DNA from: Patescibacteria group bacterium
Lineage (GTDB): Bacteria; Patescibacteriota; Doudnabacteria; UBA920
DNA length: 58,698 nucleotides
Assembly: GCA_023484515.1 (NCBI GenBank)
Contig: JAMDAY010000004.1
Span: 1-58,698, forward strand
Reading direction: 5' to 3'
The notes beneath the pieces were generated by a model. The model ran no database searches. It worked only from the letters and a program-made list of their open reading frames with translations, and was not told the origin of the DNA. Shown here in pieces: positions 7,870-58,698 of the stretch. The translations under genes were made by a program, and so were the position numbers. The stretch's first letter is position 1. Each line of letters opens with the position of its first letter.

Positions 7870-7976
7870 GAGGCAGGGCTTTAACAATGTAGCGTGCCGA
7901 TTTATCGGCAGATGATCAATTGATTGTATCCAATTTATCGGCTGTTGATTAACCAGATGCCCATTGTAAAAGGAGG

Positions 7977-8195
7977 GTGAAGGCAGCCTTCCGGGATTTG
8001 CCTTCTAAAGTCAGATTGATGATGATCAATGTCCAATAATCTAAAGTCTGTTTGTCCCGGAAGGCTGCCTTCACTGCCATGGACCAATAAAATCAAAAAT
8101 AAAAATAACTGTCTCCTGAACACCACAACACGTGTTGTGGTGTTCCCCAATAGGCAGGCTTAAGGCTTATTGGAGGTTTTTTAAGGTTTTTTTCC
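7977..8195 (+). repeat. Structured dispersed element, copy A
   Basis: 20-bp perfect stem 7977-7996/8055-8074 around a 58-nt loop; perfect 28-bp palindrome 8118-8145; tail shared with copies C and D. Confidence 0.85.
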
Positions 8196-8197
8196 TA

Positions 8198-8445
8198 TGT
8201 CATTGCAAGTCCCGTGTCATTGCGTCCCCTTGGTGTCGTTGCGAGGCAAGGGCTTTGTCTTGCCGAAGCAATCTTTTCCTTGGGATAGATTGCTTCGCTC
8301 GGATGCACTCGCTCGCAATGACACCGCGCTTTATGTGCCATTGCGAGGCACGTCGCTCGCGAGCGACGTGCCTAAGAGTCAGGGCTTTATTTTTACCGAC
8401 GACTTGTCCCACGTAGCTTTAGCGAAGTCGGGAGCAGCCCAATGA
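8198..8445. repeat. Cluster of GTC-type REP-like palindromes
   Basis: Repeated gtcattgcgag...gaagcaatc...gattgcttc...ctcgcaatgac units. About 46 nt are near-identical, reverse-complemented, to 40558-40603. Confidence 0.85.
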
Positions 8446-8523
8446 ATGGGGCAACTACATCTTAAGACAAGCCTTCGCAATGAGCACAAAGGCTATCATA
8501 TGCATCCAGGTGAAGTAATATGG

Positions 8524-10896: not shown

Positions 10897-10917
10897 AAAT
10901 GTAAAAATAAGGGAGCT

Positions 10918-11090
10918 GAAGGCAGCCTTCCGGGATAGGTCTTTTATAGCCAGATTGATGATAACCAACATCTGTTTGTCCCTTAAAGGCTGCCTTCCCT
11001 GCCATGGACCAGTAAAATAGGGAGTAAAAACAGATGCCTCCTGAACGCCACAACACGTGTTGTGGCGTTCCCGCCATATAGGCCAGGCGG
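10918..11090 (+). repeat. Structured dispersed element, copy C
   Basis: gaaggcagccttccggga...tccc..aaggctgccttc; perfect 28-bp palindrome 11043-11070. Confidence 0.85.
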
Positions 11091-11092
11091 AT

Positions 11093-11249
11093 CTGTAGTT
11101 GCCTGATTCATCAGGCCCCTTTGCAAAGCTGAGTGAACTAAGCGACTACAGCTTAAGGGGCAAGGCTTAAGGTTTAATTACAAATTATCCTTTGTAGGGG
11201 CTGCCCTTTGGGCGCCCGAACTGCGGGCAAGCTTTAGCTTGCCCCTACA
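11093..11249. repeat. Two GTAG...CTAC REP doublets (11093-11151 and 11193-11249)
   Basis: Each has tgtag/ctaca outer arms and two inner hairpins. 11193-11249 is near-identical to the reverse complement of 40344-40399. Confidence 0.8.
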
Positions 11250-29185: not shown

Positions 29186-29275
29186 GGAGAGATCGCATAG
29201 TGGTCTAGTGCGCTTGCTTGGAAAGCAAGTAGGTTCGAAAGGGCCTCGGGGGTTCGAATCCCCCTCTCTCCGCCA
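29186..29275 (+). tRNA. tRNA-Ser (anticodon GGA)
   Basis: GGAGAGA acceptor, cttgc-TTGGAAA-gcaag anticodon arm, long variable arm, GGTTCGAATCC, encoded CCA. Confidence 0.97.
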
Positions 29276-29333
29276 CATTTTTAATATTCAGCCTTTCTTT
29301 GCTCCAAAAATTGCTTTCTGTTTATATAAAACT

Positions 29334-30224
29334 ATGCCAATACCAGTTCAAAAGGATATACTTCTTCCATTTCTTCAAATGATTAAAGACGGCGAAGAAC
29401 ATCACATAAATGAGGTGATTGATTCATTGGCATCTAATTTCAAACTAACTGAAGAAGAAGAAAAACAGCAATACCCGAGTGGTAATGATAATATTTTTCA
29501 TAATAGGGTGCGCTTCGCGCGTGCTTATCTTTTACGTGCAAATTTATTGGAAAGCCCAAAACGAGGTTATATAAAAATATCTGAGTCAGGACTCAAAGCC
29601 CTACAATCTGGTTCGTTTAAATTTAATACCAACATTTCCAAACAATCTCGCAACCAATCATTACTCGGTCCCAACAAAAAAGGAGAAGCTAACGGAATAG
29701 ATATTCAAAATCCATTCGACTTACTGGAGGATGGCTACCAAACTATTCGCCGGAGTTTATCTCAAGAAATAATAGAATACGTCAAAAAGTGCTCACCCCG
29801 ATTCTTTGAAAAGCTTGTTGTAGAGCTTTTATTAAAAATGGGGTATGGCGGATTTTCCGCTGATGCTGGAAAAGTTATAGGCCAAAGCGGAGATGGTGGA
29901 ATAGATGGAATTATTAAAGAAGATAAGCTTGGCTTGGACGTAATCTATATCCAAGCAAAAAGATGGGAAAATCCGCTAGGAGAGCCCGTCATAAGGGATT
30001 TTGTTGGAAGCCTGGTACGAAATCATGCTAATAAAGGTGTCATTATAACCCCATCGTATTTTACTCGCGAAGCAAAAGAGTATGTCAAGAATATTCCCCA
30101 TAGAGTCATCCTGATTGACGGAGAATCATTAGCTCATTATATGATTGATAGTGATATAGGGGTGTCAAAAATTGTAAGCTATGACGTAAAAAAAATTGAC
30201 TTGGATTATTTTTTTGAAGAATAA
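29334..30224 (+). CDS. mrr: Mrr-family (type IV) restriction endonuclease
   Basis: N-terminal wHTH (NRVRFARAYL); FFEKLVVELL, GDGGIDG, IQAKRW. Confidence 0.92.
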   Translation: MPIPVQKDILLPFLQMIKDGEEHHINEVIDSLASNFKLTEEEEKQQYPSGNDNIFHNRVRFARAYLLRANLLESPKRGYIKISESGLKALQSGSFKFNTNISKQSRNQSLLGPNKKGEANGIDIQNPFDLLEDGYQTIRRSLSQEIIEYVKKCSPRFFEKLVVELLLKMGYGGFSADAGKVIGQSGDGGIDGIIKEDKLGLDVIYIQAKRWENPLGEPVIRDFVGSLVRNHANKGVIITPSYFTREAKEYVKNIPHRVILIDGESLAHYMIDSDIGVSKIVSYDVKKIDLDYFFEE

Positions 30225-30492
30225 CAGGTTCACCAACAAAAATCTTAGAATAATTTAGAAAACTTTACCAAGCGTCTGAATTTACATAACCACATCATCT
30301 CCTTAATATTCCTTAGCATTGCATATTGGATATTTTTTCAAAAAAGTTACCCACAATTGACCCATGCTCTTCCCCTGAAAATCCCTTTTGCATAACTGAG
30401 CTGTTGCAAAATATAAAACATGCTATAATAAAAGCAAATTATTATCGGCAAGAAATCACAAATTTAAAACGCAAATTCGAAAATCCGGAACA

Positions 30493-30630
30493 ATGGCCAA
30501 AATAGCCAAAATAACGCCTGGAACTCCGGATTATGCCTTTGCTTTTTGGATTTTATTCTTGCTCCATCCTGTCGCAATATCCATACTTGTTGTAGCGCGC
30601 CCGTTTATGGGCTCAAATAGCAGCCAATAG
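30493..30630 (+). CDS. Putative 45-aa upstream ORF in the glutamine synthetase leader
   Basis: My translation: MAKIAKITPGTPDYAFAFWILFLLHPVAISILVVARPFMGSNSSQ*. Downstream of TGCTATAAT at 30421-30429. Confidence 0.4.
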   Translation: MAKIAKITPGTPDYAFAFWILFLLHPVAISILVVARPFMGSNSSQ

Positions 30631-30704
30631 GCTTGTCCCGGCCGCAGAGCCGGGATCGGGGCACGCTGCACCGCGGATATGTTGATGGGTAAGGAGTTTT
30701 CTTT

Positions 30705-31796
30705 ATGGCCAACAAAATTATGGCCGAATACATTTGGATGGACGGGAAAAAACCGACCGCCAAGCTGCGCTCCAAAACCAAGATTATTAATGCAGCCGCA
30801 ATCCGCAGCGCTGACGACTTGCCCATGTGGGGCTTTGACGGCTCTTCCACGGAACAGGCCGAAGGCCACTTTAGCGACTGCCAGCTCAAACCGGTTTACT
30901 ATATCCCCGACCCCATCCGCGGCGAGCCTAATGTTTTGGTAATGTGCGAAGTGCTCAACGCGGACGGCAGCCCGCATTCCACCAACACGCGCGCCGCTTT
31001 AAGACAAGCGGCCGAAAAATACGCCAAGCACGAGCCATGGTTCGGCATAGAACAGGAATATACTTTATACCGCAAAGACTGGCCGCTTGGCTGGCCGCAG
31101 CACGGCTTTCCCCATCCGCAAGGGAGATATTATTGCGGAGTCGGATGCGACGAAGTTTACGGCCGCAAGCTGGTGGAAGCGCATTTGCGGGACTGCTTGA
31201 AAGCGGGATTAATGATAAGCGGCATTAACGCCGAAGTCATGCCCGGGCAATGGGAATTCCAGGTCGGCCCGCTGCCGCCTTTGGAGGCGGCCGACCAGTT
31301 ATGGCTGGCAAGGTGGATATTATACCGGCACGGCGAAGATTTTGAAGTTTACGCCAAACTGGACCCAAAGCCCATGGCCGGAGACTGGAACGGGGCCGGA
31401 GGACACACTAATTTTTCCACCAAAGAGATGCGGCAGGAAGGCGGCCTGGAAATTGTCAAACAAACTTGCGAAAAACTGGGCAAATTCCATATGCAGCATA
31501 TGCAAGTCTACGGCGCGGATAACGACAAAAGATTAACCGGCAAGCACGAAACTTCCACTATTTACGATTTCCGTTACGGTGTTTCCGACCGCGGCGCCTC
31601 GGTCCGCATCCCCATGGCCACGTCCCTGGCAGGCAAGGGATATTTGGAAGACCGGCGCCCGGCGGCTAACCTTGATCCCTACCAGGTATTCACCGCCTTG
31701 CTCGAAACCTCCTGCGGCCAAGGTTTTAACCCAATAGATTATGGCTGGCAGGCCGACATGTACGTAACGCCGGTTCGGGAAAAAGTTACAGCCTAG
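30705..31796 (+). CDS. glnII: Glutamine synthetase, type II (GSII-like)
   Basis: 363 aa; AEYIWMDG, LRSKTK, WGFDGSSTEQAEG, NAEVMPGQWEFQVGP, DWNGAG, YLEDRRPAAN. Confidence 0.93.
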   Translation: MANKIMAEYIWMDGKKPTAKLRSKTKIINAAAIRSADDLPMWGFDGSSTEQAEGHFSDCQLKPVYYIPDPIRGEPNVLVMCEVLNADGSPHSTNTRAALRQAAEKYAKHEPWFGIEQEYTLYRKDWPLGWPQHGFPHPQGRYYCGVGCDEVYGRKLVEAHLRDCLKAGLMISGINAEVMPGQWEFQVGPLPPLEAADQLWLARWILYRHGEDFEVYAKLDPKPMAGDWNGAGGHTNFSTKEMRQEGGLEIVKQTCEKLGKFHMQHMQVYGADNDKRLTGKHETSTIYDFRYGVSDRGASVRIPMATSLAGKGYLEDRRPAANLDPYQVFTALLETSCGQGFNPIDYGWQADMYVTPVREKVTA

Positions 31797-39361: not shown

Positions 39362-40150
39362 ATGAATATGAATACCAATGACCAATATTTAAAAACTGCT
39401 TTGCAGGCGGCTAAACAGGCAGGCGAAATATTTAAAGCCAGTTTCGGCAGGCCGCGGCAGGTAAAAAACAAAAACAACAATCCGCGGGACCTGGTTACGG
39501 AAGCGGACTTGAAAATAGAAAAACTTATCCGAAGCATTGTTGGCAGGCGTTTTCCCGCCCATAAAATTATCGGCGAAGAATTTGGCGCGGCTGAAATTAA
39601 CAAAAGCGACCTGGTGTGGATTGTGGATCCCATAGACGGCACGACTAACTTTATCCAAGGCATCCCTTTTTGCTGCATCTCCATAGCCCTGTGGGACAGC
39701 AAGGGACCTTTGGCGGGAGTAGTTTACAACCCGATCACTAATACTTTATACCACGCAGCCAAAGGCAAGGGCGCTTATTGCAACAACAAACTAATCCATG
39801 TTTCAAAAACCAATTCCGTAAAAGACAGTTATAGCGCTGTCAGTTGGGGCCGAACCTGGCAGATGGGAAGAAAAATTATGCCGTTTTTTATCAGGAACAT
39901 GAGAAAAGTGAGAACTTTCGGCAGCGTCGCTTTGGAAACCTGCTATGTCGCCCAGGGAAGTTTTGACAGTTTTATTCAGGGCAGGCTGTCTATTTGGGAT
40001 GTTGCGGCAGCGGCTTTAATACTGGCCGAAGCCGGCGGCCGGGCAACGGACTGGCAAGGCAAGGCCGTGTCCCGGCAGGTGAAAAATTTGGTAGCCAGCA
40101 ACGGCAGGCTGCATAAAGAATTGCTAAAGCTGGTGAACAATCTCTATTGA
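39362..40150 (+). CDS. suhB: Inositol monophosphatase family protein
   Basis: DLVTEAD, GEE, VDPIDGTTNF, WDVAAA. Confidence 0.93.
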   Translation: MNMNTNDQYLKTALQAAKQAGEIFKASFGRPRQVKNKNNNPRDLVTEADLKIEKLIRSIVGRRFPAHKIIGEEFGAAEINKSDLVWIVDPIDGTTNFIQGIPFCCISIALWDSKGPLAGVVYNPITNTLYHAAKGKGAYCNNKLIHVSKTNSVKDSYSAVSWGRTWQMGRKIMPFFIRNMRKVRTFGSVALETCYVAQGSFDSFIQGRLSIWDVAAAALILAEAGGRATDWQGKAVSRQVKNLVASNGRLHKELLKLVNNLY

Positions 40151-40227
40151 AGCCCGTATATTATCTTGAATAATTTTTGTTATTAGTAAGCCGAAATTTG
40201 TTCAACTGATTTTGCGGAGATGGGTAA
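40144..40227 (+). mobile_element. 84-bp palindromic MITE, copy 1
   Basis: About 5 substitutions versus 45692-45775 over the first 78 nt; right end degenerate. Confidence 0.75.
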
Positions 40228-40232
40228 GGACA

Positions 40233-40601
40233 GTAGGGACAGGTCTAGACCTGTTGTCCTTGCAAGAAAAGGCGCAAAACCTCCTTAAGCTTGCAGTTGC
40301 CCAATTCATTGGGCTGCGCATTCGGCAACAGACCCATAAAGAATGTAGGGGCAAGCTTTAGCTGCCCGCAGTTCGGGCGCCCAAAGGGCAGCCCCTACAA
40401 AGGATAATTTATCTTGCCACAGTGCCGCCTGGTACCTGGCTTGCAATGGGCATGCAAAATGCGGTGTCATTGCGAGCGAGTGCATCCGAGGCTGACGAAG
40501 CAAACTATCCCGCGTGTCATCGCGAGTGCATCCGAAGCGATCTGTTCCAGGCAAAGGAAAAGATTGCTTCGGCAAGACAAAGCCCTTGCCTCGCAATGAC
40601 A
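40233..40601. repeat. Island of GTAG- and GTC-type REP-like palindromes
   Basis: gtagggacaggtctagacctgt (40233-40254); doublet 40344-40399; gtcattgcgag-type units 40465-40601. Confidence 0.85.
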
Positions 40602-40611
40602 CCGGGCATGG

Positions 40612-40767
40612 GAAAAAGGTTTTAGAAAACCCCTGATAAACCTTATACCTGCCCCTATGGGAACGCCTCAACCGCGGTTGAGGCGTTCAGGAGGCAGATG
40701 TTTTTACTCCCTATTTTACTTGTCAATGGCAAGGAAGGCACCTTTTAGGGGATAAACAGGCTTTAGA
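40612..40767 (-). repeat. Structured dispersed element, copy D (5'-truncated)
   Basis: Reverse complement aligns to copies A and C; perfect 28-bp palindrome 40661-40688. Confidence 0.8.
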
Positions 40768-42877: not shown

Positions 42878-42961
42878 CTATTGATCTCCGCAAAATCAGT
42901 TGAACAAATTTGGTCTTACTGATAACAAAAATTATTCAAGATAATATGCGGGCCTTAATAA
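42878..42961 (-). mobile_element. 84-bp palindromic MITE, copy 2
   Basis: Reverse complement differs from 45692-45775 at about 4 positions. Confidence 0.75.
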
Positions 42962-45651: not shown

Positions 45652-45691
45652 AAATTGATAAATGGATTAATTTTTCTTGCCGCCAAAAACG

Positions 45692-45775
45692 CTATTGAGG
45701 CCCGCATATTATCTTGAATAATTTTTGTTATCAGTAAGCCCAAATTTATTCAACTGATTTTGCGGAGATCAATAG
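45692..45775 (+). mobile_element. 84-bp palindromic MITE, copy 3 (intact ends)
   Basis: CTATTGA...TCAATAG termini; inner arms ccgca/tgcgg and ttgaataa/ttattcaa. Confidence 0.8.
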
Positions 45776-48161: not shown

Positions 48162-49547
48162 TTAAAATTGGATTAAAAATTTCGGATGCGCGGACATCAT
48201 TTCCTCAAACCCCTCTTTGGTATATTTTGCAATCGGCAAAATGGCGCCTTGGCCGCGGTCTAAGATTATGTCAAATAATTTTTCCTGCACGCCATTGGGC
48301 AGGTCTTCCATCAGTTTTTTGGTAATTTCCCAGGTTTCCCAAATCTGGCGGCCGGCTACGCAATGCATGGTGACGCCTTTCATCACCAGGCGATTGTAAT
48401 CTTCAAAAACAAAATCACCGTTCTTTAGTCCAAACAAAATTACGTCCCCGCCGCGGCGGACAGAGGCAATGGCATTGTTGACCGAATCGTTAAATCCCGC
48501 CATTTCAAACGCCACGTCCGCGCCCAGGCCGTTGGTGATTTTTAGAATTTCGTCTACGACTGCCTGGTTGTGGGCGTAGGGTTTCTGCGTCATCGCGAGT
48601 GCATCCGAAGCGATCTTCTTGTCGGGTAAGATTGCTTCGTCCTCCTTCGCTGAAGCTTCGGAGGATCTTTGATCGGATGCGCTCCTCGCAATGACACCGG
48701 AAGATTGCTTTAGTGTGATCACGTAATCTATCCCCAGCTTCTTTGCCATATCAATCGCCACCGGGTTCGGTTCTATGCCAATTATGGTTGAAGCGCCCAA
48801 GCCCTTGGCAATTAAAGTTAAAAACATGCCAATCGGCCCCAGGCCAAAAATCGCCACGGTTTTGCCCTTTAAATCTACTTTGCTTGCCGCGTGCACGGCA
48901 TTGCCGAACGGCTCCTGCATAGCCGCCACTTCGGGGCGGATTCTGCCTGTGTCAGTCTTCCAAGCCACCTGTGCCGGCACCTTGGCAAACTCCGCAAACC
49001 CGCCGTCTACGCTAATGCCTAAAATCTTTTCGTTGGTGCAAACGTTTTTTTGCCCATACAGGCATTGATAACATTTATTGCAAACTACGTGCGACTCGCA
49101 GGCTACAAAGTCACCGGGCTTTAAATTTTTTACGTTTGACCCCACTTTCACTATCTCGCCAAAAAACTCGTGGCCAATGATGCGATATGTCTTCTTGCTG
49201 TCATTGCGAGGAGCCAGGGCTTTATCTGGCAACGACCTGTCCGACGTAGCTTTAGCGTAGTCGGAAGCAGTCTTTTCTTGGGTTAAGATTGCTTCGCCCT
49301 CGGATGCACTCGGGCTCGCAATGACACCATTTTTTGATTCCGCATCAATGCTATTCAAAATCGCATCCTTAAAAGCCTGCCGATGCCAAATTCCCTTGTC
49401 CGTGCCGCACACGCCGGCATAGGCTACCTTGATAATAATTTTATCTTCATCGCCCTCTTCCAAAACCGGCTCGGGGACGTCTGCCAACTCAAACCCGCGC
49501 GAGGTTTCCCAGCCATATTTGCTTTTGTCAAAAATAAGCGCTTTCAT
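48162..49547 (-). CDS. tdh: L-threonine 3-dehydrogenase (Zn-ADH family) with two palindrome-derived insertions
   Basis: GVCGTD, GHEFFG, ESHVVCNKCYQC, EPFGNAVH, GLGPIG; adjacent to kbl. Confidence 0.88.
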   Translation of the reverse strand: MKALIFDKSKYGWETSRGFELADVPEPVLEEGDEDKIIIKVAYAGVCGTDKGIWHRQAFKDAILNSIDAESKNGVIASPSASEGEAILTQEKTASDYAKATSDRSLPDKALAPRNDSKKTYRIIGHEFFGEIVKVGSNVKNLKPGDFVACESHVVCNKCYQCLYGQKNVCTNEKILGISVDGGFAEFAKVPAQVAWKTDTGRIRPEVAAMQEPFGNAVHAASKVDLKGKTVAIFGLGPIGMFLTLIAKGLGASTIIGIEPNPVAIDMAKKLGIDYVITLKQSSGVIARSASDQRSSEASAKEDEAILPDKKIASDALAMTQKPYAHNQAVVDEILKITNGLGADVAFEMAGFNDSVNNAIASVRRGGDVILFGLKNGDFVFEDYNRLVMKGVTMHCVAGRQIWETWEITKKLMEDLPNGVQEKLFDIILDRGQGAILPIAKYTKEGFEEMMSAHPKFLIQF

Positions 49548-56386: not shown

Positions 56387-56394
56387 TCATAAAA

Positions 56395-56505
56395 GGGCAG
56401 CCACCTACTTTTGCACTAGCATGCGCTAGACTATCATTGGCCCGAGCGTGTTTTACTTCTGAGTTCGGGATGGGATCAGGTAGGACCACGCTGGAAATGC
56501 CACCC
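56395..56505 (-). rRNA. rrf: 5S rRNA
   Basis: Plus strand cacctact...ctatcattggc...gagttcgggatgggatcagg matches the 5S antisense pattern; 111 nt. Confidence 0.92.
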
Positions 56506-56615
56506 ATCCAGCCTCATTTTTATACAAATCACATTTGTTTTAAAGCAAGGATAGTAAATATTTACAATTCTTACTTTCTTACAAAAACAACCTGTATAAA
56601 AATGAGGCTGGATGG
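56504..56615. repeat. 112-bp element with 23-bp perfect inverted repeats at the 5S 5' end
   Basis: ccatccagcctcatttttataca / tgtataaaaatgaggctggatgg. Confidence 0.8.
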
Positions 56616-56650
56616 AGGTACTTTCGGCTCTGCTTTAATTTTTAGAGAAC

Positions 56651-56758
56651 CTAGGGTCTGAGGGCAAACACCAGATTATTGGAAAGGGCGAAGAAAAGCC
56701 CGAAAACGGCAACTATTACCAGAACGGCAAGAATGATCTTGAGGTTTTGTTTGAACAT
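56651..56758 (-). CDS. Putative 35-aa hydrophobic peptide in the 23S-5S spacer
   Basis: My translation: MFKQNLKIILAVLVIVAVFGLFFALSNNLVFALRP*. Confidence 0.45.
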   Translation of the reverse strand: MFKQNLKIILAVLVIVAVFGLFFALSNNLVFALRP

Positions 56759-56898
56759 TGTATAATACTGTTCGCGAATATACAAATTGGTATTGCGAAT
56801 CCTGTTATATATGGAAATGCTGATGTAAAAATTTGTATATTATTTATAATTCGTATATTGGCGATTACTCTTCACAAATTGCCAGTCAAAAGAAAATA

Positions 56899-57969
<1,071 letters not shown>

Positions 57970-58698
57970 CATATACGTTAACTTTATGTCTCCATAAAGA
58001 TCAGACTATATCATTCCCAACGTTTGTTGGGATTCGGCGTTTAGTCGTTGAGGGGTTTCATTTGTTGATCCTTGAAAATCAACTAAATTATATTTTCTCT
58101 TTCGCCCTTTTCCTTCATTTAAGGTTTCCCTTAATTGAATTATTTTGAGCAAACCTTCTTTCGTCAAATGTTGTTTGCTGAACATAAGTTCAGCAATTTG
58201 AACGAAAATCGAGAAATTCTTTTTTTTGTTGGAAGATAAAAAAGAAAACTTCTTAAAGAACGGGATTATCCGTTCCTGTATTGCCGACGGATTTTGAACT
58301 ATATAACAGTTCACTCCGTCTTTTCGCTTTAGAAATCTTCCGCAGCCCAAATAGCGCTTCATTTCTGCGAGCACTACGGGGTCGCGTTGTGATACGTTAA
58401 AGGTTAATATTATTTGCCATTTCATAGAATGGTCAGGCCGCTTACGCATTGAAACGTTAAAGCTTCCTTCGCCATCGGTGAAACCTGCGAAATAATAACC
58501 TTTTTCTAAAGGAATTTGTTTAAGCCAATTTTGATCCATATCTTATTCTCCTTATGGATCATGAAATGAAACTTCCCTGCGGATTGGCTGTATCTTGTAA
58601 ATTTTTACTGCCTAGATTTAGGCGAGTATTACAAGTTTTAAGCACGTCAATGTCTTTTGCGTGCACAGCTGTTCCCGCAAATAGCCAAAGATCGGAAG
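57970..58698 (-). mobile_element. Group I intron at 23S position L1917 (5' part outside the window)
   Basis: Intron ends in G (gtatatG|aactgtcc), in place of the ...AACUAU^AAC H69 context; R (ucaacgacua), S (augauauagucu) and Q-like (aauccgcaggg) elements. Confidence 0.92.
58006..58539 (-). CDS. Single-motif LAGLIDADG homing endonuclease (intron-encoded)
   Basis: YFAGFTDGEGSF; AAGGAG RBS; 177 aa. Confidence 0.95.
   Translation of the reverse strand: MDQNWLKQIPLEKGYYFAGFTDGEGSFNVSMRKRPDHSMKWQIILTFNVSQRDPVVLAEMKRYLGCGRFLKRKDGVNCYIVQNPSAIQERIIPFFKKFSFLSSNKKKNFSIFVQIAELMFSKQHLTKEGLLKIIQLRETLNEGKGRKRKYNLVDFQGSTNETPQRLNAESQQTLGMI

Follow-up and report, generated by a model that had tools for sequence, protein, structure and literature searches.

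A candidate cis-regulatory RNA in the leader of the glutamine synthetase gene glnII in a lineage of Patescibacteria

The mRNA of glnII, the gene for type II glutamine synthetase (GS) in a genome of the Patescibacteria (candidate phyla radiation), possibly carries an undescribed cis-regulatory RNA, through which a factor reporting nitrogen status, likely a metabolite, would set translation by way of a helix termed P0 and an anti-Shine-Dalgarno (anti-SD) strand; we put the probability of this reading at roughly 0.4. Judged by comparison with related sequences, the functional candidate is the segment 30447-30563 together with the anti-SD/SD pair, instead of the GC-rich hairpins or the upstream open reading frame (uORF) of the same leader. 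The original prediction of a novel structured glnII leader is upheld, while its uORF-based attenuator and a sensor made of the GC-rich hairpins are not. To our knowledge, gene regulation in Patescibacteria is almost entirely unexplored; these bacteria have tiny genomes and are mostly uncultured. If the sensor is real, it would offer a first handle on how they perceive nitrogen status and add a new RNA family to the databases; if it binds a metabolite, it would represent a new class of riboswitch and might provide a compact natural sensor of a nitrogen metabolite. Were the riboswitch reading true, the element would also be the first riboswitch residing on a gene for GS itself, and its class would be the first that is unique to Patescibacteria.

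In the window, by which we mean the whole analyzed stretch of 58,698 nt, glnII occupies positions 30705-31796 of the plus strand and encodes a protein of 363 aa with Gln-synt_N and Gln-synt_C domains, whose homologues at 70-89% identity carry the NCBI name GlnII. The nearest GlnII relatives are found in metagenome-assembled genomes labelled Patescibacteria, Doudnabacteria and Gribaldobacteria, and the exact sequence occurs in mine-tailings metagenome runs; the runs found with the sequence are DNA only, from mine-tailings and sediment metagenomes. Upstream of the gene lie dnaG (minus strand), tRNA-Ser(GGA) (29186-29275) and a gene for a Mrr-family restriction endonuclease (29208-30224), and downstream follows a convergent PEP synthase gene. 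In the syntenic loci L161 and L163 (collected glnII loci are designated by L numbers), the gene order is rpoD-dnaG, tRNA, glnII, ppsA, without mrr. The Mrr-family gene of the window (Mrr_N and Mrr_cat domains), located between tRNA-Ser(GGA) and the glnII promoter within 29186-30224, is probably an insertion beside the tRNA gene, since it is missing from both of these loci; because its listed GTG start at 29208 overlaps the tRNA, its true start likely lies further downstream.

An extended -10 promoter (TGCTATAAT, 30421-30429, plus strand) can be read directly at the place where the original prediction had put it, and the transcription start is predicted near 30436. Elements of the TGnTATAAT type occur 10-45 nt upstream of the conserved core described below in L161, L163, L166, L168 and L175, and variant forms of the extended -10 lie upstream of the core in L164, L165, L167, L172 and L003; in all 13 distinct copies, the core is situated between such a TG-extended -10 promoter and the start codon of glnII. 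This recurrence in relatives supports transcription of the glnII leader from a conserved extended -10 promoter, with the start itself predicted. No sigma-70-like promoter was predicted on the plus strand inside the leader. The 269-nt leader has a folding energy of -92.4 kcal/mol (z-score -3.33), which none of 200 shuffled sequences equals in stability. By segment, the fold z-score is -3.32 for the core (30457-30556) on the plus strand vs -1.34 on the minus strand, -3.59 for the GC-rich block, and -4.48 for the platform (30561-30707). No intrinsic terminator was predicted in 30000-31000, and the other 12 leaders that share the core likewise show none. An attenuator operating through transcription termination is not supported, as no intrinsic terminator is predicted between the core and the start codon.

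The core is a rod-like hairpin of about 95 nt on the plus strand (30460-30553), composed of three stacked helices (P1, P2 and P3) and defined by MAFFT alignments, an RNAalifold consensus, covariation and a covariance model. P1 is long, AU-rich and interrupted (30460-75 with 30538-53, plus 30478-79 with 30534-35); P2 comprises seven base pairs between AUCCGGA (30483-89) and UCCGGAU (30525-31); and P3 comprises four base pairs between UGGC (30494-97) and GCCU (30516-19) and is capped, in the RNAalifold consensus of the MAFFT alignment, by an A-rich terminal loop. Both internal loops are conserved, with RAA/WA between P1 and P2 and AC..A/..AAC between P2 and P3. The unpaired nucleotides A31, A33, A40 and A73 are invariant, and the AAC preceding the 3' arm of P2 is nearly so. 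Together, the conserved unpaired nucleotides of the internal loops and the A-rich loop suggest a specific binding pocket.

The core was traced through 179 loci (about 0.9 Mb) gathered in two scans of a sequence collection with the GlnII protein as query and in look-ups of the closest GlnII homologues, and it is common to 13 distinct leaders: those of the window, L003, L161, L163-L168, L172, L175, L176 and L179. The GlnII proteins of the core-bearing relatives are 78-89% identical, and each of the 13 leaders, when folded singly, reproduces P1, P2 and P3. In the 13-sequence MAFFT alignment, 91.4% of the cells are standard pairs and 14 of the 26 pairs have changed on both sides; the observed paired cells, compensatory pairs and covariation score are not reached by any of 500 shuffles, although some of these statistics are inflated by the narrowness of the single sub-clade that bears the core and by the relatedness of its 13 distinct sequences. 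Sliding the 3' partners by 1-3 columns lowers the pairing to 25-52%. Among the individual changes, the closing pair of P2 is A-U in seven sequences and G-C in six, P3 is formed by GGC/GCC vs GAU/AUC, and the pair at alignment columns 30/85 is G-U, G-C or A-U. The AUCCGG of P2 is nearly invariant in 12 of the 13 leaders; in L176 the whole helix is replaced by ACCAAAA/UUUUGGU, with pairing kept. Within-lineage variation could be read from a sediment-metagenome run (X4) with a near-identical strain: no substitution is listed inside the core at a reporting threshold of 10%, and the leader changes that are listed fall in a linker or preserve pairs within the GC-rich insertion. The core combines an aptamer-like conserved structure with covariation support, a general attribute of riboswitches. 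Segment 30460-30553, which had been read as uORF coding sequence, is in fact the sole strongly conserved structure of the leader: across the 12 relatives the core is retained, and the GC-rich hairpins are absent.

The core is also specific in strand and in gene. A covariance model (R1) built from 11 sequences recovers the two leaders outside its training set (L179, 103.6 bits; L176, 37.6 bits) and finds a single copy in the 58.7-kb window, scoring 105.8 bits on the plus strand vs 28.7 on the minus strand. This asymmetry, in R1 bits as in fold z-score, argues for an RNA acting from the sense strand rather than for a DNA palindrome. Within the 179 loci, the core occurs solely upstream of glnII, 12-151 nt before the start codon, and no copy away from glnII was found by R1 in about 0.98 Mb searched. 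A steady position in the 5' UTR, placement on the sense strand and association with one coherent gene are, again, as generally seen in riboswitches. Divergent copies were not found in sister-clade glnII leaders with R1 run with filters off, and a pattern scan of viral contigs for the core gave no match.

The P0 helix closes off the core in four of the leaders (window, L163, L161 and L165). In the window, the 5' arm of P0 (GGCAAGAA, 30447-30454, plus strand) can pair with the 3' arm (UUCUUGCU, 30556-30563), or else with the SD-AUG spacer UUUCUU (30698-703); the equivalent pairings are GGGCAAG/CUUGCUC in L163, GGGCAGGAA/UUCCUGCCC in L161 and AGGCAAGAA/UUCUUGCCU in L165, and the helix covaries through a compensatory change from A-U to G-C in L161. 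Leaders without P0 have the base of P1 lengthened by pairs of the GCCAA/UUGGC type. In L161, a hairpin of its own of about 95 nt (L161:2247-2345) is inserted between the 5' arm of P0 and P1, at a site different from that of the window's insertion, and P0 is kept; leaders tolerate insertions, with P0 and the core retained.

Directly 3' of P0, and overlapping its 3' arm by 3 nt, lies the anti-SD strand (30561-30574, plus strand), of which GCUCC pairs with GGAGU (30693-97) and CCUGUCG (30568-74) with UGAUGGG (30683-89). The SD sequence AAGGAG (30691-30696, plus strand) is located 8 nt upstream of the ATG, and UAAGGAG also occurs in L161, L163, L164, L165 and L168. The pyrimidine-rich stretch following P0 is GCUCCAUCC in the window and L163 and GCCUCCUUA in L165, CCCC-type stretches are present in L161, L166, L167 and L175, and in the folds of the leaders it pairs with the SD or adjacent to it. 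The arrangement in L163 matches that of the window (CUCC-AUCCUGU / ACGGGAU-AA-GGAG), and L165 has a perfect anti-SD, CUCCUUA. In the best fold of the window, GGC-AAGAAA (30447-55) additionally pairs with the spacer UUUCUU (30698-703) and the GCC of codon 2. At the level of modelling, the GCUCC/GGAGU and CCUGUCG/UGAUGGG pairings of this fold confirm the SD sequestration proposed in the original prediction, and the predicted anti-SD pairing recurs in several relatives.

Thermodynamic modelling indicates that the core and P0 form by default. When P0 is blocked in silico, the probability that the SD is unpaired falls in all four P0-bearing leaders, more strongly in L163 (0.50 to 0.33) and L165 (0.27 to 0.00) and weakly in the window (0.34 to 0.27) and L161 (0.53 to 0.45), which hints that the folded core with P0 may represent the ON state. 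Forcing or blocking the core has no consistent effect on SD accessibility across the leaders, and the expression platforms vary: in five leaders (L003, L168, L172, L176 and L179), the SD or AUG lies 11-18 nt past the base of P1, with no separate hairpin. As a side observation, the U-rich SD-AUG spacer can pair with AAC-AAA codons past the start, which places the AUG in a hairpin loop; this pairing is found in the window (30695-30719: AGUUUU, 30695-700, with AAAAUU, 30714-19) and in analogous form in L003, L163, L168, L172 and L175, and its sequences differ, as in L003 (UUUUUGG/CCAAAAA) and L172 (UUUUUGC/GCAAAAA).

From these elements, a mechanism can be proposed in which the glnII mRNA would start near 30436 and the P1-P2-P3 core, clamped by P0, would act as the sensor. 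The anti-SD GCUCC directly 3' of P0 would pair with the SD across the platform hairpin, and a factor reporting nitrogen status would bind the core, shifting the presumed competition between P0 and the anti-SD:SD pairing and thereby setting glnII translation. Translation initiation is the likely output, given the missing terminator, the proximity of the core to the ribosome-binding site, the recurring anti-SD strands and the predicted SD pairing. That the factor is a small metabolite, making the element a riboswitch, is conceivable at somewhat below even odds, and this type of ligand would fit the restriction of the element to a single gene and the limited set of regulators in these organisms. 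Our first guess at its identity would be glutamine, the end product, with 2-oxoglutarate and glutamate as alternatives. More tentatively still, the core (30460-30553) might be the aptamer of a new riboswitch class so far confined to Patescibacteria, with a nitrogen metabolite gating GS translation directly.

Known RNA families were searched with Rfam 15 (4227 families) in the window, in related loci and in the core by itself, with gathering thresholds and at E<=10. The core matches no family at E<=10, and the scans returned chance hits alone: eukaryotic families without any relation to the element, and the hairpin of a Caulobacter sRNA. In line with the original statement that the leader does not resemble the cyanobacterial glnA riboswitch, cmscan gave no match to the glnA RNA (RF01739) at E<=10, whether 1.2 kb was scanned or only the core under lax filters; the Glutamine-II family (Downstream-peptide, RF01704) likewise has no match over 1.2 kb or the core alone. 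Neither family matches at E<=10 over the L168 core, nor at E<=1 in L003-L008, L081 and L082, among which only L003 has the core. The T-box leader (RF00230) matches neither the window nor the core, which is only about 95 nt long. CsrA-type GGA sites and T-box-like UGGN motifs were dropped after inspection by eye: these motifs are part of helices, and the GGA of P2 is missing from L176. The literature yielded cyanobacterial glutamine riboswitches and no paper on a glnII RNA motif of Patescibacteria. With neither an Rfam nor a literature match, the element would constitute a new family among cis-regulatory leader RNAs and riboswitch candidates.

The closest functional analogue is the cyanobacterial glutamine riboswitch, which differs in architecture, target gene and phylogenetic range. 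In the case of the Synechocystis gifB leader, glutamine binding to the aptamer controls the synthesis of IF17 (PMC6212724), and the Glutamine-II riboswitch is a small translational RNA sensor of nitrogen status (PMC6698751). Like the glnII leader, the class I glutamine riboswitch is a structured 5'-UTR RNA tied to the control of GS and is translational; however, class I (RF01739; cyanobacteria and marine metagenomes) is a three-helix junction of about 60 nt with an E-loop and a pseudoknot, whereas the glnII core is an extended hairpin of about 95 nt. Class I regulates GS-inactivating factors and other small genes, while the glnII RNA lies on the GS gene itself, and the range of the glnII core, unlike that of class I, is restricted to Patescibacteria. 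The SD is enclosed by the Glutamine-II RNA, a pseudoknot of triplex character; the glnII leader yielded no sign of a pseudoknot. In overall architecture, the core appears to resemble the NMT1/xanthine and nhaA-I/Li+ classes, which have unrelated sequences and gene associations and gave no Rfam match. These classes are single-hairpin rods with stacked helices and conserved internal loops, and have translational platforms by P1.

The main rival, ranking second after the metabolite riboswitch, is that the core is a protein-binding translational operator, bound by GS itself or by another nitrogen regulator that occludes or opens the ribosome-binding site; we consider it somewhat unlikely. Protein-binding leader operators include that of thrS and the ribosomal-protein leaders, and the core resembles thrS-type operators in being a conserved hairpin that abuts the ribosome-binding site of one gene family. 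It is a single extended hairpin, with no multi-helix junction and no pseudoknot detected, and its rod-like shape with conserved internal loops is also typical of such operators; moreover, the P2 AUCCGG is near-invariant in 12 of the 13 leaders, the hairpin base in the five leaders noted above ends 11-18 nt short of the AUG, bordering directly on the ribosome site, and the core is stable by default. Unlike thrS-type operators, however, it does not evidently mimic a tRNA or rRNA site and has no known cognate protein: the genes neighbouring glnII vary, and the locus has no candidate binding protein associated with it. L176, which retains the P2 helix but loses its sequence, also speaks against an operator, as does the scarcity of regulators in the very small genomes of this group. 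The metabolite riboswitch is the reading that we prefer.

Considerably less probable is a constitutive structural role, in which the leader would stabilize the mRNA or tune basal translation without sensing. The predicted structure is indeed the default fold, and no alternative structure is consistent across the leaders, as such a role would have it; on the other hand, the unpaired nucleotides of the internal loops, which a mere stabilizer does not need, are strongly conserved, and the hairpin begins 10-45 nt from the predicted 5' end. Two further proposals are very improbable: that a transcription factor uses the palindrome as a DNA operator, or that the core is an independent small RNA gene. 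The inverted repeat ATCCGGA...TCCGGAT lies just downstream of the promoter, as a DNA operator might; yet G-U pairs underlie the strand asymmetry (105.8 vs 28.7 bits, z -3.32 vs -1.34) and compensatory changes preserve pairing while the half-site sequence is lost. The lack of a terminator between the core and glnII stands against a small RNA gene, and the constant orientation of the core close to the SD is unfavourable to both proposals.

The weakest proposal is ribosome-dependent attenuation through the 45-codon uORF (30493-30630, plus strand), which does exist at the coordinates given in the original prediction and does cross the anti-SD arm, but which we judge spurious and whose regulatory role we reject, because its ATG is present in the window alone, lies within P2/P3 and has no SD before it, and no uORF is conserved. 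The 5' arm of P3 (AAUGGCC in the window vs AAAGAUC, UAGGAC or CACGGC elsewhere) gives rise to the ATG at 30493, which none of the 12 relatives has at the equivalent position; a second ATG, at 30533, occurs in only 4 of the 13 leaders, and no ORF is common to all 13. Differences in loop length among the leaders are not multiples of three, and most of the ORF lies within a non-conserved insertion. The two substitutions of the X4 strain are compatible with coding, that at 30624 being synonymous in frame and that at 30630 turning the TAG stop into TAA.

The insertion in question is the GC-rich block (30583-30674) held by a platform hairpin on the plus strand (30577-30680) that is closed by AUAUCC/GGAUAU. 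It is 92 nt long with 62% GC, vs 35-38% in the rest of the leader, and it is absent from all 12 related leaders; P1 ends 12-70 nt ahead of the AUG in these relatives vs 151 nt ahead of it in the window. As an insertion of the window lineage missing from every relative, the hairpins of this block are not supported as the sensor. Every sequence feature that the original prediction listed is nevertheless in place, and the arms can be read as gccc/gggc (30599-602, 30609-12), agcc/ggct (30622-25, 30630-33), tcccggc/gccggga (30636-42, 30649-55), tgtagcg/cgctgca (30591-97, 30664-70) and atatcc/ggatat (30577-82, 30675-80). In the best fold, AUAUCC/GGAUAU and UGUAGCG/CGCUGCA enclose the GC-rich block; gccc/gggc and agcc/ggct do not form as proposed, the GCCC pairing instead with GGGC at 30659-62 and GUUUAU with AUAGGC. 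The near-identical strain of the X4 run has the insertion with two substitutions (30624 C>T and 30630 G>A), which keep the pairs of the best fold (G-C to G-U and U-G to U-A) and break agcc/ggct. No other copy of the insertion, as would befit a repeat or mobile element, was found in the window or the loci. A tRNA-like reading of its cloverleaf shape was discarded, as ARAGORN returned only tRNA-Ser at 29186-29275. Eye-catching GC-rich hairpins in a leader can thus be recent insertions, and the candidate functional element here is the unremarkable AU-rich part.

Several further features were observed around glnII and elsewhere in the window. Sister-clade glnII loci without the core carry a conserved hairpin of the form 'AAAGTTAAAAAAAACACCCTA ... 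AGGTGTTTTT', which consists of an A-tract, a stem and a U-tract and varies in its interior. A conserved TTGACA...TATAAT promoter precedes this hairpin by about 25 nt, and glnII follows it at a distance of 150-300 nt. It was located at L003:2757-2832, L004:2665-2745, L005:2800-2890, L006:845-945, L007:2774-2872, L008:2692-2772, L081:1593-1680 and L082:338-428, and L003 bears both this hairpin and the core. The hairpin has no Rfam entry and no covariation; a leader terminator/attenuator is one possible identity, a small RNA gene another.

Of 23 Patescibacteria loci, 9 have a DnaA-box-like 9-mer (TTATCCACA, TGTGGATAA or TGTGGAAAA) at 86-474 nt upstream of glnII (L003:2706, L004:2617, L006:760, L082:256, L084:1912, L172:2320, L005:2735, L007:2679 and L081:1508), compared with 44 matches overall in 919 kb. 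The window has a form with one mismatch (TTACCCACA, 30347-30355) about 70 nt upstream of the -10 element, and the 9-mer upstream of glnII might serve as a binding site for a transcription factor. The last part of the window (56392-58698) contains, on the minus strand, a 5S rRNA gene together with the 3' portion of a 23S rRNA gene. Several families of direct and inverted intergenic repeats, 40-105 nt long and 85-100% identical, occur at approximately 7970-8460 and at 10909-11230, 40145-40760, 42878-42960, 45687-45775 and 48604-49345 of the window. Some of these repeats have palindromic GC-rich cores, e.g. CGAAGCAATC...GATTGCTTCG and GTCATTGCGAG, and the glnII leader of L082 contains a segment, GTCATTGCGAG...AAGCAATC, that resembles them.
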